The notes under the pieces are model-generated. The model was not told the DNA's origin, did no database searches, and saw only the letters and a list, made by a program, of their open reading frames with translations. Both the position numbers and the translations under genes were made by a program. 64,000 bases of DNA from Escherichia phage vB_EcoM-LTH01: sequence record PP430345; one strand, written 5' to 3'. Below, piece after piece: positions 2,051-24,791 of the stretch (position 1 is its first letter; each line of letters begins with the position of its first letter).

Positions 2051-2655
2051 TCAAGAAGTTTGTTGCTTGGGTAAAATCGCTGTTTATTCCTCTGGAAGTA
2101 GAAACTGCGGCGATCGACAAGTATATTGCAAAGCAGGCCGAACAGCGTAAGGAGACTGAAAGCGTTAAATTCGGCCCAGTTGAAACACGCGATCTGGAAG
2201 AACCATTAAAAGAAAATGAGGTATTGGTTGGGGTAAACATCAAAGATAAGACGATGAAGGTTGTTGATATCTCTGTTGAACGACCAAAATCACAGGCTAC
2301 GCCGCCGAAACCGTTGGATGAACAACTGAAGGGTGTTGAATTACCGTCCTATGCTCAAGGTAAGAAATTACCACCGAAGGCAAAGCGACAGTATATTGAT
2401 CAGGCCCGTCGGGCAGCACCACGTAAGATGAGCGACTCTCCAAATGGGTATGGAACTAGCCAGGTTGATCCTCAGGTGGCAGCTTTAGGTGGTGTGGCAA
2501 CGTATACTGCTGTAATGTCCTCCAGTGAAGATCGTACAAGTAGTTCAAGTTCTCACTGTTCTTCAAGTCGGTCAAGTTCGTATGATAGCTCATCATCGTA
2601 TGATAGTTATTCTTCTGATAGTAGCAGCAGTAGTTCTTCAAGCAGTTGTGATTGA
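2047..2655 (+). CDS. hypothetical protein with Ser-rich low-complexity C-terminal tail
   Basis: ORF track; last ~45 aa are mostly S/D/Y. Confidence 0.5.
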   Translation: MIKKFVAWVKSLFIPLEVETAAIDKYIAKQAEQRKETESVKFGPVETRDLEEPLKENEVLVGVNIKDKTMKVVDISVERPKSQATPPKPLDEQLKGVELPSYAQGKKLPPKAKRQYIDQARRAAPRKMSDSPNGYGTSQVDPQVAALGGVATYTAVMSSSEDRTSSSSSHCSSSRSSSYDSSSSYDSYSSDSSSSSSSSSCD

Positions 2656-2722
2656 TATTTAAGAGAGGGGCCGAAAGGCTCCTCACATCGGGAGTAAGAG
2701 TTTTAATTAGAGGAGTGATGAA

Positions 2723-3124
2723 ATGCGTAAAGTATACCCTAAGAAGCCAAATGCCACTAAAACCCCACGCTACGGTTCTGAAGAATGTCCGCGAATCACG
2801 GATGAAGAATCTCGTATCGTTAAGGAAAATTTTGCAGAAATATTTTTGTTTGGTCCCACTAATAATGATCCGTACACTCTGTTGGCTGAACGTTTAGGCT
2901 CAGATCGCAATCGAGCAAAAACTGTATACTATGCTTGGGTTTATCGACAGAAAGGTCATTATTTTCGTCATGTTACTCGGGAGCGTCAAGTTCGTTCACG
3001 TTTAGTCTGTCGTATCAAAAAGTACACAGAATTCTTAAACAATCCAGAAACTATCTATCAGATTATGTGTCGTGCAGAAGATGAGGTTGACGAACTGATT
3101 GCTAAGGGGACTATCAAACAATGA
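2723..3124 (+). CDS. hypothetical protein
   Basis: ORF track; GAGGAG RBS upstream. Confidence 0.45.
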   Translation: MRKVYPKKPNATKTPRYGSEECPRITDEESRIVKENFAEIFLFGPTNNDPYTLLAERLGSDRNRAKTVYYAWVYRQKGHYFRHVTRERQVRSRLVCRIKKYTEFLNNPETIYQIMCRAEDEVDELIAKGTIKQ

Positions 3125-3272
3125 TGATTTCTCCAGAGATTTTTGTAACGTTTTTCATTATGGTTTCTCTTGCAGGATCAAGGTTTTTACCTTTCAACGT
3201 ACTAAGTGCGACATGGTTCATACTTGGGACAATATTTGCAGTAGAGACTACAAAATATTTTGGAGGTAGCTA

Positions 3273-3572
3273 TTGAAAAGGTTAATCATTTTATGTATAC
3301 TTCTTCTTGTTGGTTGCGGAGAGGGTGAAGATGAGCAGACAAAGCGATACAAAAATCTACCTTCTCTGATGCCAACAGAGGTTAAGGAGTTACACGAATT
3401 TTGCAAGAAGCAACACAATTATTACAACAGTTATGCGGTTGTTGTTGATGGTGAAGCAAAATCTGTAATTTGCAAGTTCAAAGATAGTGAACGTGAAAAA
3501 GGTATCTCCTCAGGTTATACGTGGGATGCTCAAAGTTTAAGAGATAAAATGAAGGGGGTTAAAAATGAGTAA
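3273..3572 (+). CDS. putative lipoprotein (TTG start)
   Basis: N-terminus MKRLIILCILLLVGCGEGED has signal peptide plus lipobox LVGC; GGAGG RBS at 3262-3266. Confidence 0.5.
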   Translation: MKRLIILCILLLVGCGEGEDEQTKRYKNLPSLMPTEVKELHEFCKKQHNYYNSYAVVVDGEAKSVICKFKDSEREKGISSGYTWDAQSLRDKMKGVKNE

Positions 3573-19592: not shown

Positions 19593-22016
19593 TTATTGGT
19601 TACCACCCTGAGTGAGCAGGTTGATATTGAATCCGTTCTCTTCATCCACAATTGCACGGATATATTGACGAATCTCTCCACTCTTGATCTCAACGGTGAT
19701 CTTACCTTCAGGTGGTGCTGCTGGAGTTTCCAGAGGAAATCCGCTAGGGCGAATACCAGATGGAGTCGAGATAGTGTTAGGATCTACAGTTATGTCACGA
19801 GAGCCACCAAACAACTCTCTGAACACATCAGTTAACCCGACAGGTTGTGGAGTTACACCATATTGCTGCTGGAAAGCTGTTGCGTCAAGCCCTGCTCCAG
19901 CCAATCGGCTCTCTCCACTTTGGATAAAGCGGTCATTGATTTCTGACCCTGCTGAATAAAGCGTACCAAGGCCAAAAAGATTACCAAGCTTACCAAGTTG
20001 ACTGAATCTTCCAGCTACACTTGTCTTACCTGGGGTAGTTGCGCCACCAGAGGCTGTGGTGTTTGCACCAGTTGTGGTTTTTCCACCCGTAGCTAAATCT
20101 CCACCAAGGGTTCCACGAATCTCCTTAAGTGCACCTTTTAATCCTGCAATCTTAGCTAGGATATTAAACACTTTAGTTAGACCGCCGAGGAACAATCCGA
20201 TACCAAGGAGATAAGAACCCCAATCAAACACTTGACGAAGAGTATCACCTTCAACACCTATTTTCTTGAAGTAATAAGACACCACACGATCCAAAAGGAC
20301 AAGGTTATCATGTATTTCAAGAACCATGTCTGTAAATCCTTCAATTACGTTACCGAAGAATCTACCGATGGTGCTTGCAACGTTACCATTACTTGATAGG
20401 ATTGTAGCTAAGTTATTGAAAACTCTTGTCAGTTGTTCACCAAAGCCACCTTGGAATATTCTGTTTTGAAACTCTGCAAAAGTCTGAGTTAAACGCTGGT
20501 AAGCAACACGGTTACTTTCCAAAGCTTTATCCAGTGCACCACCTTTGTTAGCAGCCTCTGCATAGTATTTACCAACCAAAGGTATGATCTTGGAGGCTTT
20601 CAATTCACCATCTTCCATCAACTTCAACAATTTTGCAATGTCGATAGAGGTGTCGCCGAATGCTTCTTGAGTTGCTTTCAAGAATACCTGTAAAGAACCA
20701 GGAATTGCTTCAGCCAACTGACCCTTTAGTTCTTCAGCCATTACTTGACCTTTACCAAGGATCTGTTGAATTGCTGTAATGCCACGCTGATATCTTACAG
20801 GATCGACCTGAAGTGCGGTGGAATATTCAGAAAATGCACTAAATAATTCGTCTGTTTGAGATTTACTAATAACACCATCAGCAGAGATCGCTAACTGGGT
20901 AAATCCCTGCGATGCAGTTTTCAGATCCAAACCTAAACGGTATGCTTCGTCACGAACAAACTTAACACGCTGACCAGCTTCTTCTGCCGAATCAGAGATC
21001 AACAGAGATGTTGCATTGATTCCTTCGAAGAATTGACCTTGACGAGTTATTGATGCACCTGCTGAGAAAACTCCATATGCGGCAGTAGCACTTACCAAGC
21101 TGGAACGAACATCTTTAAGTGTGGAAGAGAAAGATCCAGCACTTGACTGTGCAGCACGGAATTGTCTTTCTAGCGCCTGTATGCTTTGACGATACTGCCC
21201 AGATGATAACGTACCAGCACGAAATTGTCTATTAAGATCTTCAATCCCACGACCTTCCGAGTCACGACCCAAAGCACCTGCATAACCACGACCATATCGA
21301 GAGGATAGACGAATACGTTGTTGTGCTGTAACATCATCAATACGGGCAGCAGCACGAGCAGCGCGGACACGTTCACGTTCCTGTTCTTGAGTTTGTTGCT
21401 TCTGCATTCTCTCTTTGATACGAGAACTACGTTGCATCGCTCTGTTTTGTGCAGCAATTAAATCAGGGTTGAATCGGCTATTAGGATCTCCAACAATACC
21501 TGACCCTGGCTCTCTGTTACCGCGAGATAATAATTGATTTGCAGCTTCCACACGTTGGATGTTGAAAGGCGGTAAAGGTGTCGCTGTACGGTTTGCAGAT
21601 CTTGCAGCAGCACGGGCAGCTTTCTCCTGTTCCTGATAGAACTTTCTCATCTCAGCAGAACCAGGGGATGCAGCCGTCAGGCTTTTAACCTGTTGTCGTA
21701 TTCTTGCAGCAGAAACCTTCTGAATTGCCTCTTTTGCCTTGGCTTCTTTCTTTGCCAGAGCAATACGATAATCAGTGGCCTTCTTCTCCTCACGCTTCCG
21801 AGTTTCTTCCAGACGTTTACTGACTAGTCTCATTTCACGAGCGGATTGTTTATAAGCCTCAGCAGGAGAATTCTTTCCGGCAGCGGTAGCCTCTGTTGAA
21901 GCCTTTTTCCATTCGTTGGAGAGTTTTCGGATCTCCTCACGAGCTTTTCGATAGGAACCTTTGTCAGTTTCAAATATGACTCGGTTCTTTGTTGTTGCAA
22001 TTACTTCAACAGCCAT
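19593..22016 (-). CDS. tail tape measure protein
   Basis: 807 aa, Ala/Arg/Gln-rich coiled-coil N-terminus, Gly-rich hydrophobic segment, canonical position after chaperone pair. Confidence 0.75.
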   Translation of the reverse strand: MAVEVIATTKNRVIFETDKGSYRKAREEIRKLSNEWKKASTEATAAGKNSPAEAYKQSAREMRLVSKRLEETRKREEKKATDYRIALAKKEAKAKEAIQKVSAARIRQQVKSLTAASPGSAEMRKFYQEQEKAARAAARSANRTATPLPPFNIQRVEAANQLLSRGNREPGSGIVGDPNSRFNPDLIAAQNRAMQRSSRIKERMQKQQTQEQERERVRAARAAARIDDVTAQQRIRLSSRYGRGYAGALGRDSEGRGIEDLNRQFRAGTLSSGQYRQSIQALERQFRAAQSSAGSFSSTLKDVRSSLVSATAAYGVFSAGASITRQGQFFEGINATSLLISDSAEEAGQRVKFVRDEAYRLGLDLKTASQGFTQLAISADGVISKSQTDELFSAFSEYSTALQVDPVRYQRGITAIQQILGKGQVMAEELKGQLAEAIPGSLQVFLKATQEAFGDTSIDIAKLLKLMEDGELKASKIIPLVGKYYAEAANKGGALDKALESNRVAYQRLTQTFAEFQNRIFQGGFGEQLTRVFNNLATILSSNGNVASTIGRFFGNVIEGFTDMVLEIHDNLVLLDRVVSYYFKKIGVEGDTLRQVFDWGSYLLGIGLFLGGLTKVFNILAKIAGLKGALKEIRGTLGGDLATGGKTTTGANTTASGGATTPGKTSVAGRFSQLGKLGNLFGLGTLYSAGSEINDRFIQSGESRLAGAGLDATAFQQQYGVTPQPVGLTDVFRELFGGSRDITVDPNTISTPSGIRPSGFPLETPAAPPEGKITVEIKSGEIRQYIRAIVDEENGFNINLLTQGGNQ

Positions 22017-22073
22017 TTCGACTCCTCATAATAAAAATAAAGGCCAGAGTCTTTCGACTCCAGCCCTATTTAT

Positions 22074-22325
22074 TTACTTTCTCCGTTTTAACTGGGCCTC
22101 TTGTTGTTCCATTCGCTGGCGTTCGTATTCCTTCTCTTTCTCTTGAACACCTTCCAAATATTCTTGAATATCTATATATTCATTTTTCTTAAGAAGGTCT
22201 TCCATGTCCCCACTTTCAATAGAAAGTTCATTAACTCCCTTGAATTTCTCCATGACACGGAAATAAAGATAGTCATACCATTTCAGACTGGAGTTTTTCC
22301 TACAATACTCCAAGGCCCTTTCCAC
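22074..22325 (-). CDS. tail assembly chaperone C-terminal extension frame (likely expressed by -1 frameshift from upstream ORF)
   Basis: Its frame stays open upstream across the stop of 22340-22810 and is in -1 register relative to it. Confidence 0.45.
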   Translation of the reverse strand: MERALEYCRKNSSLKWYDYLYFRVMEKFKGVNELSIESGDMEDLLKKNEYIDIQEYLEGVQEKEKEYERQRMEQQEAQLKRRK

Positions 22326-22339
22326 CGTACTCAGCGGCC

Positions 22340-22810
22340 TCAGGCTTCCGTCTGATCCAGTTGGTCCACCTTGCGAACCAGACCGAACTTCTGAAGGAGA
22401 TTTTCGATTGTCCCGAAACCGCTCTTGCCGAAAAAACAGCCGTAGTTCACCTGTATGATTTCAGCAAGTAACTTGAACAAATCTTCTACGTGACCATCAA
22501 ACACTTCATCGATATCAATCGGGCCGCCCATGTTGTCTACTTCAACGCCTTCCAGTAAAAGGTTGATAATTTCCAGACCACCTTCATCGATACGATCCAG
22601 AATATAAAGAATTGCGGTTGGGACAGCATCTTGAAAATCTTGTCCACCGGAAATAGCAGAGCCTGCCATTGTACCCAAAGGAACAGCTACCAGCTTGCCA
22701 ATTTTAGGCATATTACGGATAACTTGAGTAGGCGACCAATGATAAATCGTGAATCGCTTACCGCCGCAGAGAGTGATCTCTGTAGTCTTTTTAAATTTAA
22801 AACCTTGCAC
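22340..22810 (-). CDS. tail assembly chaperone
   Basis: Position between tail tube and tape measure genes; ends shortly after a U UUU UUC heptamer. Confidence 0.55.
   Translation of the reverse strand: MQGFKFKKTTEITLCGGKRFTIYHWSPTQVIRNMPKIGKLVAVPLGTMAGSAISGGQDFQDAVPTAILYILDRIDEGGLEIINLLLEGVEVDNMGGPIDIDEVFDGHVEDLFKLLAEIIQVNYGCFFGKSGFGTIENLLQKFGLVRKVDQLDQTEA
22430..22436 (-). promoter_or_regulatory. candidate -1 programmed frameshift slippery heptamer (T TTT TTC)
   Basis: Heptamer in the 0 frame of the chaperone ORF (codons TGT TTT TTC); -1 frame open from here to the stop at 22074. Confidence 0.45.
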
Positions 22811-22889
22811 GTTTACACTCCTGTGTCCACTTTGTTAATATAAATATGTCCATAGCGTGAGAAGGGCCTCATCCTTGAGGCTCACGTAA

Positions 22890-23372
22890 TTATTGATCCA
22901 GTCCGAGTATTCCACCGATACCAGCAGCAACGCCTTGAATCTGATCAGCGCTCAACTGTGCATCGACTACGCCAATTTCCCAGTCCATCTGACCTACTTC
23001 AGAACCGTAGGTCAGGTCTGGTTGACGTTGAATCCATCCGAAGGTGTTCAGAGATAGACCCTGAGAACCTTCAATCTGAATCGGGAAGTAAACAAGTCCG
23101 GTAAGACGGGCTTGCAACTGCCATTGAGAGAGATAACCGTTCCATACAGAGGTATTCTGCAAAGAGATGGTCACTACGCCGGAGTTATCACGGACGATAG
23201 CAGAACTCACTTCACCATCTACACCCGACAGCGGAGTAATGTTATCATTGTTACGAGAAACAACGACTTTCGTATCAGCGGCGAATCCAGAAACACGTTG
23301 ACCACCGATAAAGATCAGGACTTTGGCTGGGTCATACGCCTGGAGACTAATTAACTTAGGATTCAGTGCCAT
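22890..23372 (-). CDS. tail tube protein
   Basis: 160 aa directly downstream of sheath gene; canonical sheath-tube order. Confidence 0.65.
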   Translation of the reverse strand: MALNPKLISLQAYDPAKVLIFIGGQRVSGFAADTKVVVSRNNDNITPLSGVDGEVSSAIVRDNSGVVTISLQNTSVWNGYLSQWQLQARLTGLVYFPIQIEGSQGLSLNTFGWIQRQPDLTYGSEVGQMDWEIGVVDAQLSADQIQGVAAGIGGILGLDQ

Positions 23373-23375
23373 CTA

Positions 23376-24791
23376 TTACACCCCTACAGAAGAAGTAGTG
23401 AAAGAAGTCTGAGTGCTTTGGGTCGTAGTTTGAGGACGATCCAGAACAACAGCAGCGCGAATTTTAACGTAGTGCAGGGAGTTGTTGTAAACTACTTCAA
23501 CTTTAACATCACGCAGGATACGGTTAGCCAAGTCGTTGCTTGGAATTTCAGCACGACGAGGAATAGTAATGATTGGATCGTAGCTCACACGGTTCACTGT
23601 ATCATAACCAGTCAGAATACCACCGTTACGAATACCGATGTTGATTGGATTATTGAACAGGATAGAACGCAGAACCGGAAGATCTTCATCACTCATCTTC
23701 ATGGACTGGCCTTGATCAGAACGACGCTTCATGTATCCGAATACAGATTCTTCCATGCGGAATTTCAGCCAATGGGAGAAACGAATAACGTCAACATACT
23801 GACCGCTGGAGGTACGACCTTCGATGTAGCTGTTAGTGCCGTACATTGCACGATAGATGTTTGCGTTACGTCCCCAAGCGTTGCTACGCTGAGTTTCGGA
23901 GATGGTAGAAGGCTTCATGCCAGGCATTGTCTTCAGGTGAATAGAGTCACCGTAAGAAGGATCGTTGGCAGCCATTGCACCGATAACAGAACCTTCGGTG
24001 AATTCTACATCCGCTTCTTTGTCGTAAGTACCCAGAGAGTTGTAACCCAGAGCTTTCAGTGTATCAAACACGGAAGCGCTTTGGTTAGCTGCTGCCAGAG
24101 CATCGCTGTCACTGGAATTATATACGTGCAGTTTATAATTGGCTTGTGCAAATTCAGCCGCTGCAACGATATCTGCATCAGAACGTTGTTCGTGAGACAG
24201 GAAGTACCAGTTGTGGTTTTCAGCAAGTACCTGCGGAAGAACAGTTGCAACAGTTTCAACAGAGGTGTTTACAATCTTGTAATTACCTTCGCCTTTTCCT
24301 ACGCTGATAATTTCTGCGGATTGTACAACAACGACGACACCACCTTCAACAGTTGCAGTAACGCGACCAGCCAAATCCGCATCGTTGTTAATGCCTTCTG
24401 CCAGAGCGGTTGCGATCTGACCAGGGGTGTTTCCAACGTTAACCAAAATGGTGATTGCTTTAACAACCTTATTGATGGTAATATTTACAACAACACGTTC
24501 GGTATTGGTAGTGCCAGTAAAGTCGATTCGAGAACCCGACATAGACATACGACCAATAGCCACCAGTTGCGGAGCAAAAGAACCGCCAAATGCATTGGAT
24601 GCAAACTGATGCGCTGCGGAACCAACTGCAAATCCATCACCAACCAGACTTTCCAAAGACCCGTACAGACGGAGACGTTCAGGGAAGTTGTTGTGTACTG
24701 CTAAGAACATTGGGGTTTCAAACCCTACGGTATCAATAGGTTGAGTGCCAAGAGTTACCTCGACGTCAACTACCTTATCTTCATAAGCCAT
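23376..24791 (-). CDS. contractile tail sheath protein
   Basis: 471 aa; position and size; identifies a myovirus-type tail. Confidence 0.8.
   Translation of the reverse strand: MAYEDKVVDVEVTLGTQPIDTVGFETPMFLAVHNNFPERLRLYGSLESLVGDGFAVGSAAHQFASNAFGGSFAPQLVAIGRMSMSGSRIDFTGTTNTERVVVNITINKVVKAITILVNVGNTPGQIATALAEGINNDADLAGRVTATVEGGVVVVVQSAEIISVGKGEGNYKIVNTSVETVATVLPQVLAENHNWYFLSHEQRSDADIVAAAEFAQANYKLHVYNSSDSDALAAANQSASVFDTLKALGYNSLGTYDKEADVEFTEGSVIGAMAANDPSYGDSIHLKTMPGMKPSTISETQRSNAWGRNANIYRAMYGTNSYIEGRTSSGQYVDVIRFSHWLKFRMEESVFGYMKRRSDQGQSMKMSDEDLPVLRSILFNNPINIGIRNGGILTGYDTVNRVSYDPIITIPRRAEIPSNDLANRILRDVKVEVVYNNSLHYVKIRAAVVLDRPQTTTQSTQTSFTTSSVGV

Follow-up and report, generated by a model that had tools for sequence, protein, structure and literature searches.

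We report that the tail assembly chaperone gene of the rV5-like Escherichia phage vB_EcoM-LTH01 very probably directs a programmed -1 ribosomal frameshift, in which ribosomes would slip at a T_TTT_TTC heptamer (positions 22436-22430) and extend the 156-amino-acid (aa) short chaperone into a 245-aa long form. The analysis concerns a stretch of 64,000 nucleotides (nt) of this genome (sequence record PP430345), which is called the window throughout; coordinates follow its plus strand, the genes discussed lie on the minus strand, and the features are collected in Table 1. We use G for the open reading frame (ORF) of the short chaperone and T for the part read in the -1 frame. The heptamer stands in slippery phase and is conserved among relatives of the phage, the downstream ORF has no independent initiation signals, and its frame is under selection. 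That the slip is ribosomal, how efficient it is, what the two forms do and which elements stimulate it are what we infer, and judged by its sequence the locus appears in every respect to be a chaperone frameshift of the lambda G/GT type.

In the mechanism we propose, most ribosomes would read straight through the heptamer and make the short chaperone, a folded core (residues 8-127) with a floppy tail of 29 aa. A minority would slip back by one base on U_UUU_UUC with tRNA-Phe on UUU in the P site and on UUC in the A site, and would then read CGG CAA GAG... in the -1 frame. The resulting long form would have the same core, a disordered linker of ~30 aa, an 85-aa helical domain and a basic C-terminus. 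If the pair works as gpG and gpGT of lambda do, the tape measure protein would be held by the long form and covered by the short one up to the time when the tube subunits polymerise, and neither form would remain in the virion.

The slippery heptamer and its conservation

A preliminary description of this DNA had placed a T TTT TTC heptamer at 22430-22436 on the minus strand, about 90 nt before the stop codon of the chaperone ORF, with the -1 frame open from that point through 22074 and a fusion of some 125 + 118 aa (~27 kDa) as the outcome. The heptamer is indeed located there and has the X_XXY_YYZ phase, the zero frame reading ...GGC TGT TTT TTC GGC... (checked by hand and by script). The TGA stop follows 94 nt after its start, an open -1 frame extends from 22460 to a TAA at 22076-22074, and the size foreseen for the fusion was essentially right: the slip product would consist of 127 + 118 = 245 aa with a computed mass of 28.07 kDa, as compared to a computed 17.15 kDa for the short form. 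The +1 frame is shut 13 codons beyond the G stop in the window, and T_TTT_TTC is the sole in-phase heptamer inside the overlap. In the window as a whole TTTTTTC is under-represented on both strands (10 copies, with 28.2 +/- 5.5 expected), and the chaperone copy is the only one that falls in slippery phase within a long ORF; this scarcity and the lack of other in-phase copies are consistent with avoidance of shifty heptamers.

The same description had named the gene a tail assembly chaperone (TAC), an identity borne out by its position between the tube and tape measure genes and by the match of the 156-aa ORF to the Pfam family PF21822, Phage_TAC_15 (78.6 bits, E 7.9e-22, well above the gathering cut-off of 22 bits), in which residues 16-133 are aligned with profile positions 1-127 of 127. 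The ORF also matches phrog_3840, “tail assembly chaperone”, with an E of 2.9e-63. Its GTG start at 22810 is preceded by AGGAG at 22822-22818.

The locus was compared among relatives from three sources, namely 17 GenBank phages taken down the tblastn ranking, 43 IMG/VR contigs and 8 metagenome contigs from protein-search matches. The codon-by-codon tabulation covers 36 non-redundant sequences, reduced from 61, and the 8 metagenome contigs bring the non-redundant total to 44; one of the two peptide patterns used to scan IMG/VR held “FF”, which biases the residues found and not the codon choice, and the other two sets are free of this bias. The in-phase T_TTT_TTC is present in 44/44, at protein identities down to 23%. 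These relatives span the Vequintavirinae (Septuagintavirus-like phages, Certrevirus, Seunavirus, Mydovirus, Henunavirus and Vequintavirus) and further the Stephanstirmvirinae (phi92, ESCO5), an Aeromonas Plateaulakevirus, a Pseudomonas phage and unclassified contigs. In every one of the 44 the open -1 frame begins 3-69 nt ahead of the heptamer, it extends 82-97 codons beyond the G stop in each relative whose sequence reaches the end of the frame, and the +1 frame is closed in all of the sequences tested for this (18/18).

Since homopolymer runs are error-prone, one might suppose that a sequencing or assembly indel had split one real ORF into two. We give this idea hardly any credence, as the T6-C run, the G stop and the two-frame layout recur in over 40 genomes and metagenome contigs that were sequenced independently, and the tail that belongs to G only is conserved in the zero frame.

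The Phe residues encoded by the heptamer are conserved in the protein, and we therefore examined the synonymous sites. The first codon is TTT in 36/36 sequences and the second TTC in 36/36, as compared to a mixture of TTC and TTT at two other conserved Phe columns (20/13 and 26/9). Ahead of the heptamer stands a codon for Cys, Pro, Ser or Ala, according to lineage, whose last base is T throughout (TGT, CCT, AGT, GCT). The C at position 7 of the heptamer is kept even though the -1 codon that starts with it may be Arg, His or Gln, and its retention fits the ranking of A-site tetramers in E. coli, A_AAG >> U_UUC > U_UUU (PMC4066793). On the sequences compared we conclude that the conservation of the heptamer is not due to chance and exceeds what the protein requires.

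Evidence for decoding of the -1 frame

The two ORFs might alternatively be separate genes, the small one being translated from a start of its own (GTG at 22325 or ATG at 22253) and the heptamer being incidental. GenBank and RefSeq records do call a separate ORF of 44-83 aa here, and the GTG of the window, at -1 codon 36, has a weak Shine-Dalgarno (SD) complementarity of -5.6 kcal/mol. We consider this arrangement most unlikely, as the -1 part has no conserved start codon among the relatives and its called homologues are of arbitrary length, from 59 to 138 aa. There is no ATG, GTG or TTG within the first 75 -1 codons of Hena1 and KpS8, and other genomes offer a start only inside the conserved domain; in CR3, for instance, the first is codon 64. 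Moreover, the -1 frame is selected upstream of every such start and directly after the heptamer. Upstream of any start, the window and CR3 differ by 15 synonymous and 2 nonsynonymous changes over 27 codons and Hena1 and KpS8 by 19 synonymous and 6 nonsynonymous changes over 40 codons, a pattern of purifying selection, and the other two frames carry stops. The -1 frameshift that the preliminary description had put forward as a candidate is thus supported by the invariant heptamer and its codons, the open -1 frame, the lack of a conserved downstream start and purifying selection.

We also note that in Hena1 (1857-1866) and in the relatives L033, L062 and L066 the Gly codon before TGT is GGA, which creates a -1 frame ATG abutting the heptamer (GGATGTTTTTTC) and has given rise to a called 96-aa “MFF...” ORF (P0051); this ATG is not conserved and has no SD sequence.

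The selection directly after the heptamer is seen in a conserved -1 frame motif, R-F-R, that begins 3-4 codons beyond it. The first Arg is CGG or AGG, while the zero-frame residue at the same place varies among S, D, G and R, and the sole variation of the motif in the phi92-like clade, CGA/CGC, is synonymous in both frames. The zero-frame codons GGT (35/35) and TTC (32/32) after the heptamer are invariant because the -1 frame R-F-R is selected there. Elsewhere in the overlap conservation is stronger in the zero frame, and the -1 frame encodes a Gly/Ser/Pro-rich stretch of variable length; such a split is the usual division of labour in overlapping genes.

The invariance of GGT TTC at synonymous sites might also be read as the mark of a slip at another place, the in-phase U_UUC tetramer of the conserved GGU_UUC at 22418-22415, 15 nt downstream of the heptamer, and tetramers of this kind can shift given a strong stimulator (PMC4066793). 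A slip at this tetramer seems to us very improbable: the Gly tRNA in the P site would be unable to re-pair on CGG, the tetramer is part of the predicted helix described below and not 5-9 nt ahead of it, and a slip at 22436-22430 better fits both the invariant full heptamer and the conserved -1 Arg codon that precedes the tetramer. The two sites predict different junctions, ...CFFRQER... for the heptamer and ...CFFGKSGFR... for the tetramer. For the heptamer slip, the predicted tryptic junction peptide of the fusion is LLAEIIQVNYGCFFR and its zero-frame counterpart is LLAEIIQVNYGCFFGK.

The anatomy of the predicted proteins was taken from models of the G and T parts made separately. In the AlphaFold model of the short form (mean predicted local distance difference test score, pLDDT, 67.8) residues 8-127 form a folded core, after which residues 128-156 are a tail of low confidence; the core ends at residue 127, and the slip site at Phe126-Phe127 therefore falls on a domain boundary. 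In the AF2 model of the -1 part, residues 1-30 have a pLDDT of 50 or less, and this Gly/Ser/Pro-rich linker looks disordered in the model; helices span residues 35-117 and the tail is basic. Residues 40-119 of the -1 part match phrog_10409 and phrog_8811. Sequence searches of the PDB with the G profile and the T part returned nothing under E = 0.1, and a Foldseek search of the T-part model against viral structures returned nothing significant.

Virion mass spectrometry (MS) of phage W70, which is 92% identical to the window, listed the tape measure protein W70_120, the tube protein W70_123 and the sheath protein W70_124, and both W70_121 and W70_122 are missing from the list (PMC11370258). We assume that these two are the chaperone ORFs, since they lie between the tube and tape measure genes. 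In the record of phage CB7 the remark “MS/MS confirmed” stands likewise on the sheath, tube and tape measure proteins and not on the two chaperone ORFs. The virion proteomes of W70 and CB7 fit a chaperone role.

Candidate stimulators and opposing evidence

Two elements might assist the slip. The first is a long-range helix, in which AGCGGUUUCGGG could pair with CCUGAGGCCGCU over 12 base pairs (bp), and this helix is present in minimum-energy folds. RNAalifold, run apart on the clade of the window and on the Seunavirus/Mydovirus clade, found an outermost helix de novo in each, in both cases with the 5' side at a common column and the region around the stop codon as its partner. Pairs were counted in an alignment with the heptamer and the stop codon as its anchors: the six outer pairs were formed in 80% of cells, as compared to 24-50% with the partner slid by 1-3 columns. 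Two outer pairs change on both sides between clades (AG/CU, GA/UC, GG/CC) and none of 500 shuffles (0/500) reaches the observed covariation score, a result to be read with the structure being derived from the same sequences, both arms being coding and the covariation being mostly one clade split. These findings lend the helix modest support, and a role as stimulator is plausible.

The second element is the SD-like AGGUGA, another plausible stimulator, whose duplex with the 3' end of 16S rRNA (-8.4 kcal/mol) ranks in the top 5% of windows along the locus. It overlaps a conserved Glu-Val and is not present in several relatives; its strongest form (GAGGUGA, -11.5 kcal/mol) occurs throughout the phi92-like clade. 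In that clade a weak local hairpin is all that begins at the 5' column of the helix. An Rfam scan of 21900-22900 gave no match.

We speculate, with more doubt than conviction, that the long-range helix tunes the frameshift. Its 5' arm is the dual-coding CGGUUUCG box and its 3' arm holds the stop codon of the short form ~85 nt downstream, so that ribosomes terminating there would melt the helix and the G:GT ratio would follow ribosome traffic; the phi92-like clade would use its strong SD-like element instead.

A number of points weigh against a ribosomal slip. In contrast to the lambda system, the fusion is here a product predicted from sequence. No natural in-frame G-T fusion was found with the 245-aa query, whose 45 matches were all of 153-161 aa and covered the G part only, and the T part, searched against 1.84 billion representatives, gave 11 matches of 59-138 aa, none of them fused. 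The preliminary description had named RNA folding downstream of the heptamer as a check, and the candidate helix does appear there in the minimum-energy fold, but the 127 nt from the heptamer fold no better than shuffled sequence (z = -1.16). In most cases the energies of duplexes between the 5' arm and downstream sequence do not differ significantly from those of shuffles, so that energy by itself lends a stimulator no support. The phi92-like clade, rV5 and L064/65 have the helix in degraded form or not at all. Both Phe residues are invariant at the protein level, so that the protein explains part of the conservation of the heptamer. Finally, the site is a homopolymer run, at which RNA polymerase might add one U at T6; the resulting U7 mRNA would encode the very same 245-aa fusion (...CFFRQER...), while the protein in any case fixes both the phase and the Phe-Phe pair, and the nucleotide sequence by itself cannot separate a slip of the ribosome from one of the polymerase.

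Such transcriptional slippage is nevertheless unlikely in our opinion. Efficient slippage by bacterial RNA polymerase needs a run of about 8-9 or more, and the run here, only T6, falls short of that length. C occupies position 7 in 44/44 sequences although a T there (TTT TTT) would leave the residues unchanged and make the run longer, and the homologous site of phage KPP10 has T5 only. The candidate helix, with its canonical spacing of 6 nt, and the SD-like element 10 nt before the heptamer likewise fit a ribosomal mechanism.

Known systems, gene neighbourhood and annotation

The chaperone frameshift itself is known, textbook biology, and what we describe is its canonical-heptamer version in this lineage. 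A conserved tail-chaperone frameshift of tailed phages is said to have been described by Xu, Hendrix and Duda in 2004 (cited in PMC8785237). As with gpG and gpGT of lambda, two overlapping ORFs are flanked by the major tail or tube gene and the tape measure gene; the second of them occupies the -1 frame and lacks an independent start, and the products are absent from virions. The differences are that the heptamer here is U_UUU_UUC as compared to G_GGA_AAG in lambda, that this is a contractile-tailed phage of ~140 kb, and that its chaperone has no detectable sequence similarity to lambda G. In the P2 E/E+E' and Mu-type chaperone frameshifts the contractile-tail module holds sheath, tube, frameshifted pair and tape measure, as here, and P2 also uses a T-rich slippery run. 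The dnaX gene of E. coli combines A_AAA_AAG with an upstream SD-like element and a downstream hairpin. Here too both tRNAs can re-pair cognately, with an SD-like element ~10 nt upstream and a candidate helix ~6 nt downstream; in contrast to dnaX, both stimulators are predicted ones, the SD-like element is not universal in the family, and the helix is long-range with an enclosed loop of ~68 nt where dnaX has a compact hairpin.

A study of December 2025 proposed a TAC-N/TAC-NC -1 frameshift, marked by an invariant GTTTTT, for the Vandenendeviridae (Pakpunavirus, phage Adele) and the Andersonviridae; it treated the Vequintavirinae and Stephanstirmvirinae as relatives, and its frameshift test covered the Vandenendeviridae and Andersonviridae (PMC12846349). 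The chaperones are homologous: ORF13 of KPP10 matches PF21822 (E 9e-25), and hhalign gives a probability of 95.8% for the KPP10 chaperone against the family of the window. The G_GTT_TTT of KPP10 falls in the same alignment columns as the T_TTT_TTC of the window, and both sites are followed by the CGGTTTCG box and the -1 frame R-F-R (KPP10 NC_015272, 8010-8050). The two differ in that the full canonical T_TTT_TTC stands here in place of G_GTT_TTT, with a T run one base longer, and are alike in that either claim is one of comparative genomics only. With a homologous chaperone, an aligned slip site and a shared box in KPP10, the site is therefore ancient and shared. The CGGTTTCG box is kept across families that have only ~25% chaperone identity, and KPP10 also has a strong GGGGGGUG...CACCCCC hairpin ~40 nt downstream.

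The contractile-tail module on the minus strand runs in the order sheath, tube, chaperone, small -1 ORF and tape measure (Table 1).

Table 1. Coordinates of the tail module and of the frameshift elements in the window
Feature	Position	Strand	Remarks
Sheath gene	23376-24791	minus	phrog_205
Tail tube gene (upstream neighbour)	22890-23372	minus	PF11681, phrog_280
Short chaperone gene (G / TAC-N)	22810-22340	minus	156 aa, GTG start, TGA stop 22342-22340
Zero frame and -1 frame both open	22460-22340	minus	-1 frame opens 24 nt upstream of the heptamer
SD-like AGGUGA	22452-22447	minus	10 nt upstream of the heptamer; possible second stimulator
Slippery heptamer T_TTT_TTC	22436-22430	minus	zero frame TGT TTT TTC = Cys125-Phe126-Phe127
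-1 frame part (T / C-terminal part of TAC-NC)	22430-22074	minus	118 codons + TAA
Candidate helix, 5' arm AGCGGUUUCGGG	22423-22412	minus	6 nt after the heptamer; holds the dual-coding CGGUUUCG box
Candidate helix, 3' arm CCUGAGGCCGCU	22344-22333	minus	contains the G stop UGA
Terminator-like hairpin	22067-22040	minus	12-bp stem + T run; in the interval separating the -1 ORF from the tape measure gene
Tape measure protein gene (downstream neighbour)	19593-22016	minus	PF20155 TMP_3; phrog_5255, E 1e-290

The DNA of the window is 99.7% identical to that of Escherichia phage UPEC06 and 92-93% identical to that of the “Septuagintavirus” phages A7_1, A5-4, A73 and W70 (Vequintavirinae). Nearly all of the relatives opened match the window in gene order, a few having inserted ORFs or a longer interval from the -1 ORF to the tape measure gene. 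The record of phage Murica annotates terminators in this interval and after the tube gene; together with the terminator-like hairpin of the window they suggest that the ratios of tube, chaperone and tape measure proteins are set by transcriptional attenuation. The interval is a variable spot among the relatives: CB7 (2321-3391) and phiTE have two additional ORFs in it, 4L372XY (2343-3405) an annotated endonuclease, and the metagenome contigs L063 and L068 (~1520-1670) an ORF of 37-40 aa, while in CR9 (2241-2466) it measures 226 nt. It may be a landing site for homing endonucleases.

In all of the related public records that we opened (19/19) the two ORFs are left unjoined, and a truncated or arbitrary “hypothetical protein” (19/19) takes the place of the C-terminal half of the long chaperone. 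Across gene calls in general, the products called for the -1 part range from 44 to 138 aa. In the UPEC06 record (MW250786, 3471-3566 and 3690-4061), moreover, the chaperone is begun at an internal ATG, giving 123 aa as compared to 156 aa from the GTG with its AGGAG, and a called 31-aa ORF overlaps the tube gene at its end; both calls are probably errors of annotation. The ECML-10 record has an overlapping -1 ORF from a CTG at the slip site and not a join, and that of K23PH08C2 has pseudogene fragments under the chaperone match. The rV5 paper, the phiTE cryo-electron microscopy paper and the Septuagintavirus paper make no mention of a frameshift or chaperone, and full-text literature searches returned no frameshift report for rV5-like or phi92-like phages.

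By tblastn the chaperone is found in 372 public phage records, including rV5-like, phi92-like, Certrevirus and Klebsiella Mydovirus genomes. Among GenBank records, 23 labelled “Campylobacter phage” (MG0656xx; 41.4% identity, genomes of ~135-140 kb) have chaperone match statistics exactly as those of E. coli rV5-like phages, and they look like Vequintavirus genomes filed under another host name.

Several of the 372 records belong to candidate therapeutic or biocontrol phages, and the gain from this work is mainly practical, in annotation: the invariant NNT TTT TTC followed by the CGGTTTCG box offers a simple diagnostic by which annotations may be corrected. The stop-codon-sequestering helix, if real, would be a small and testable addition to the bacterial frameshift stimulators. 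With regard to the phages themselves, two further lineages here join the two sister families for which the site was proposed, and this implies that the signal is old and shared.

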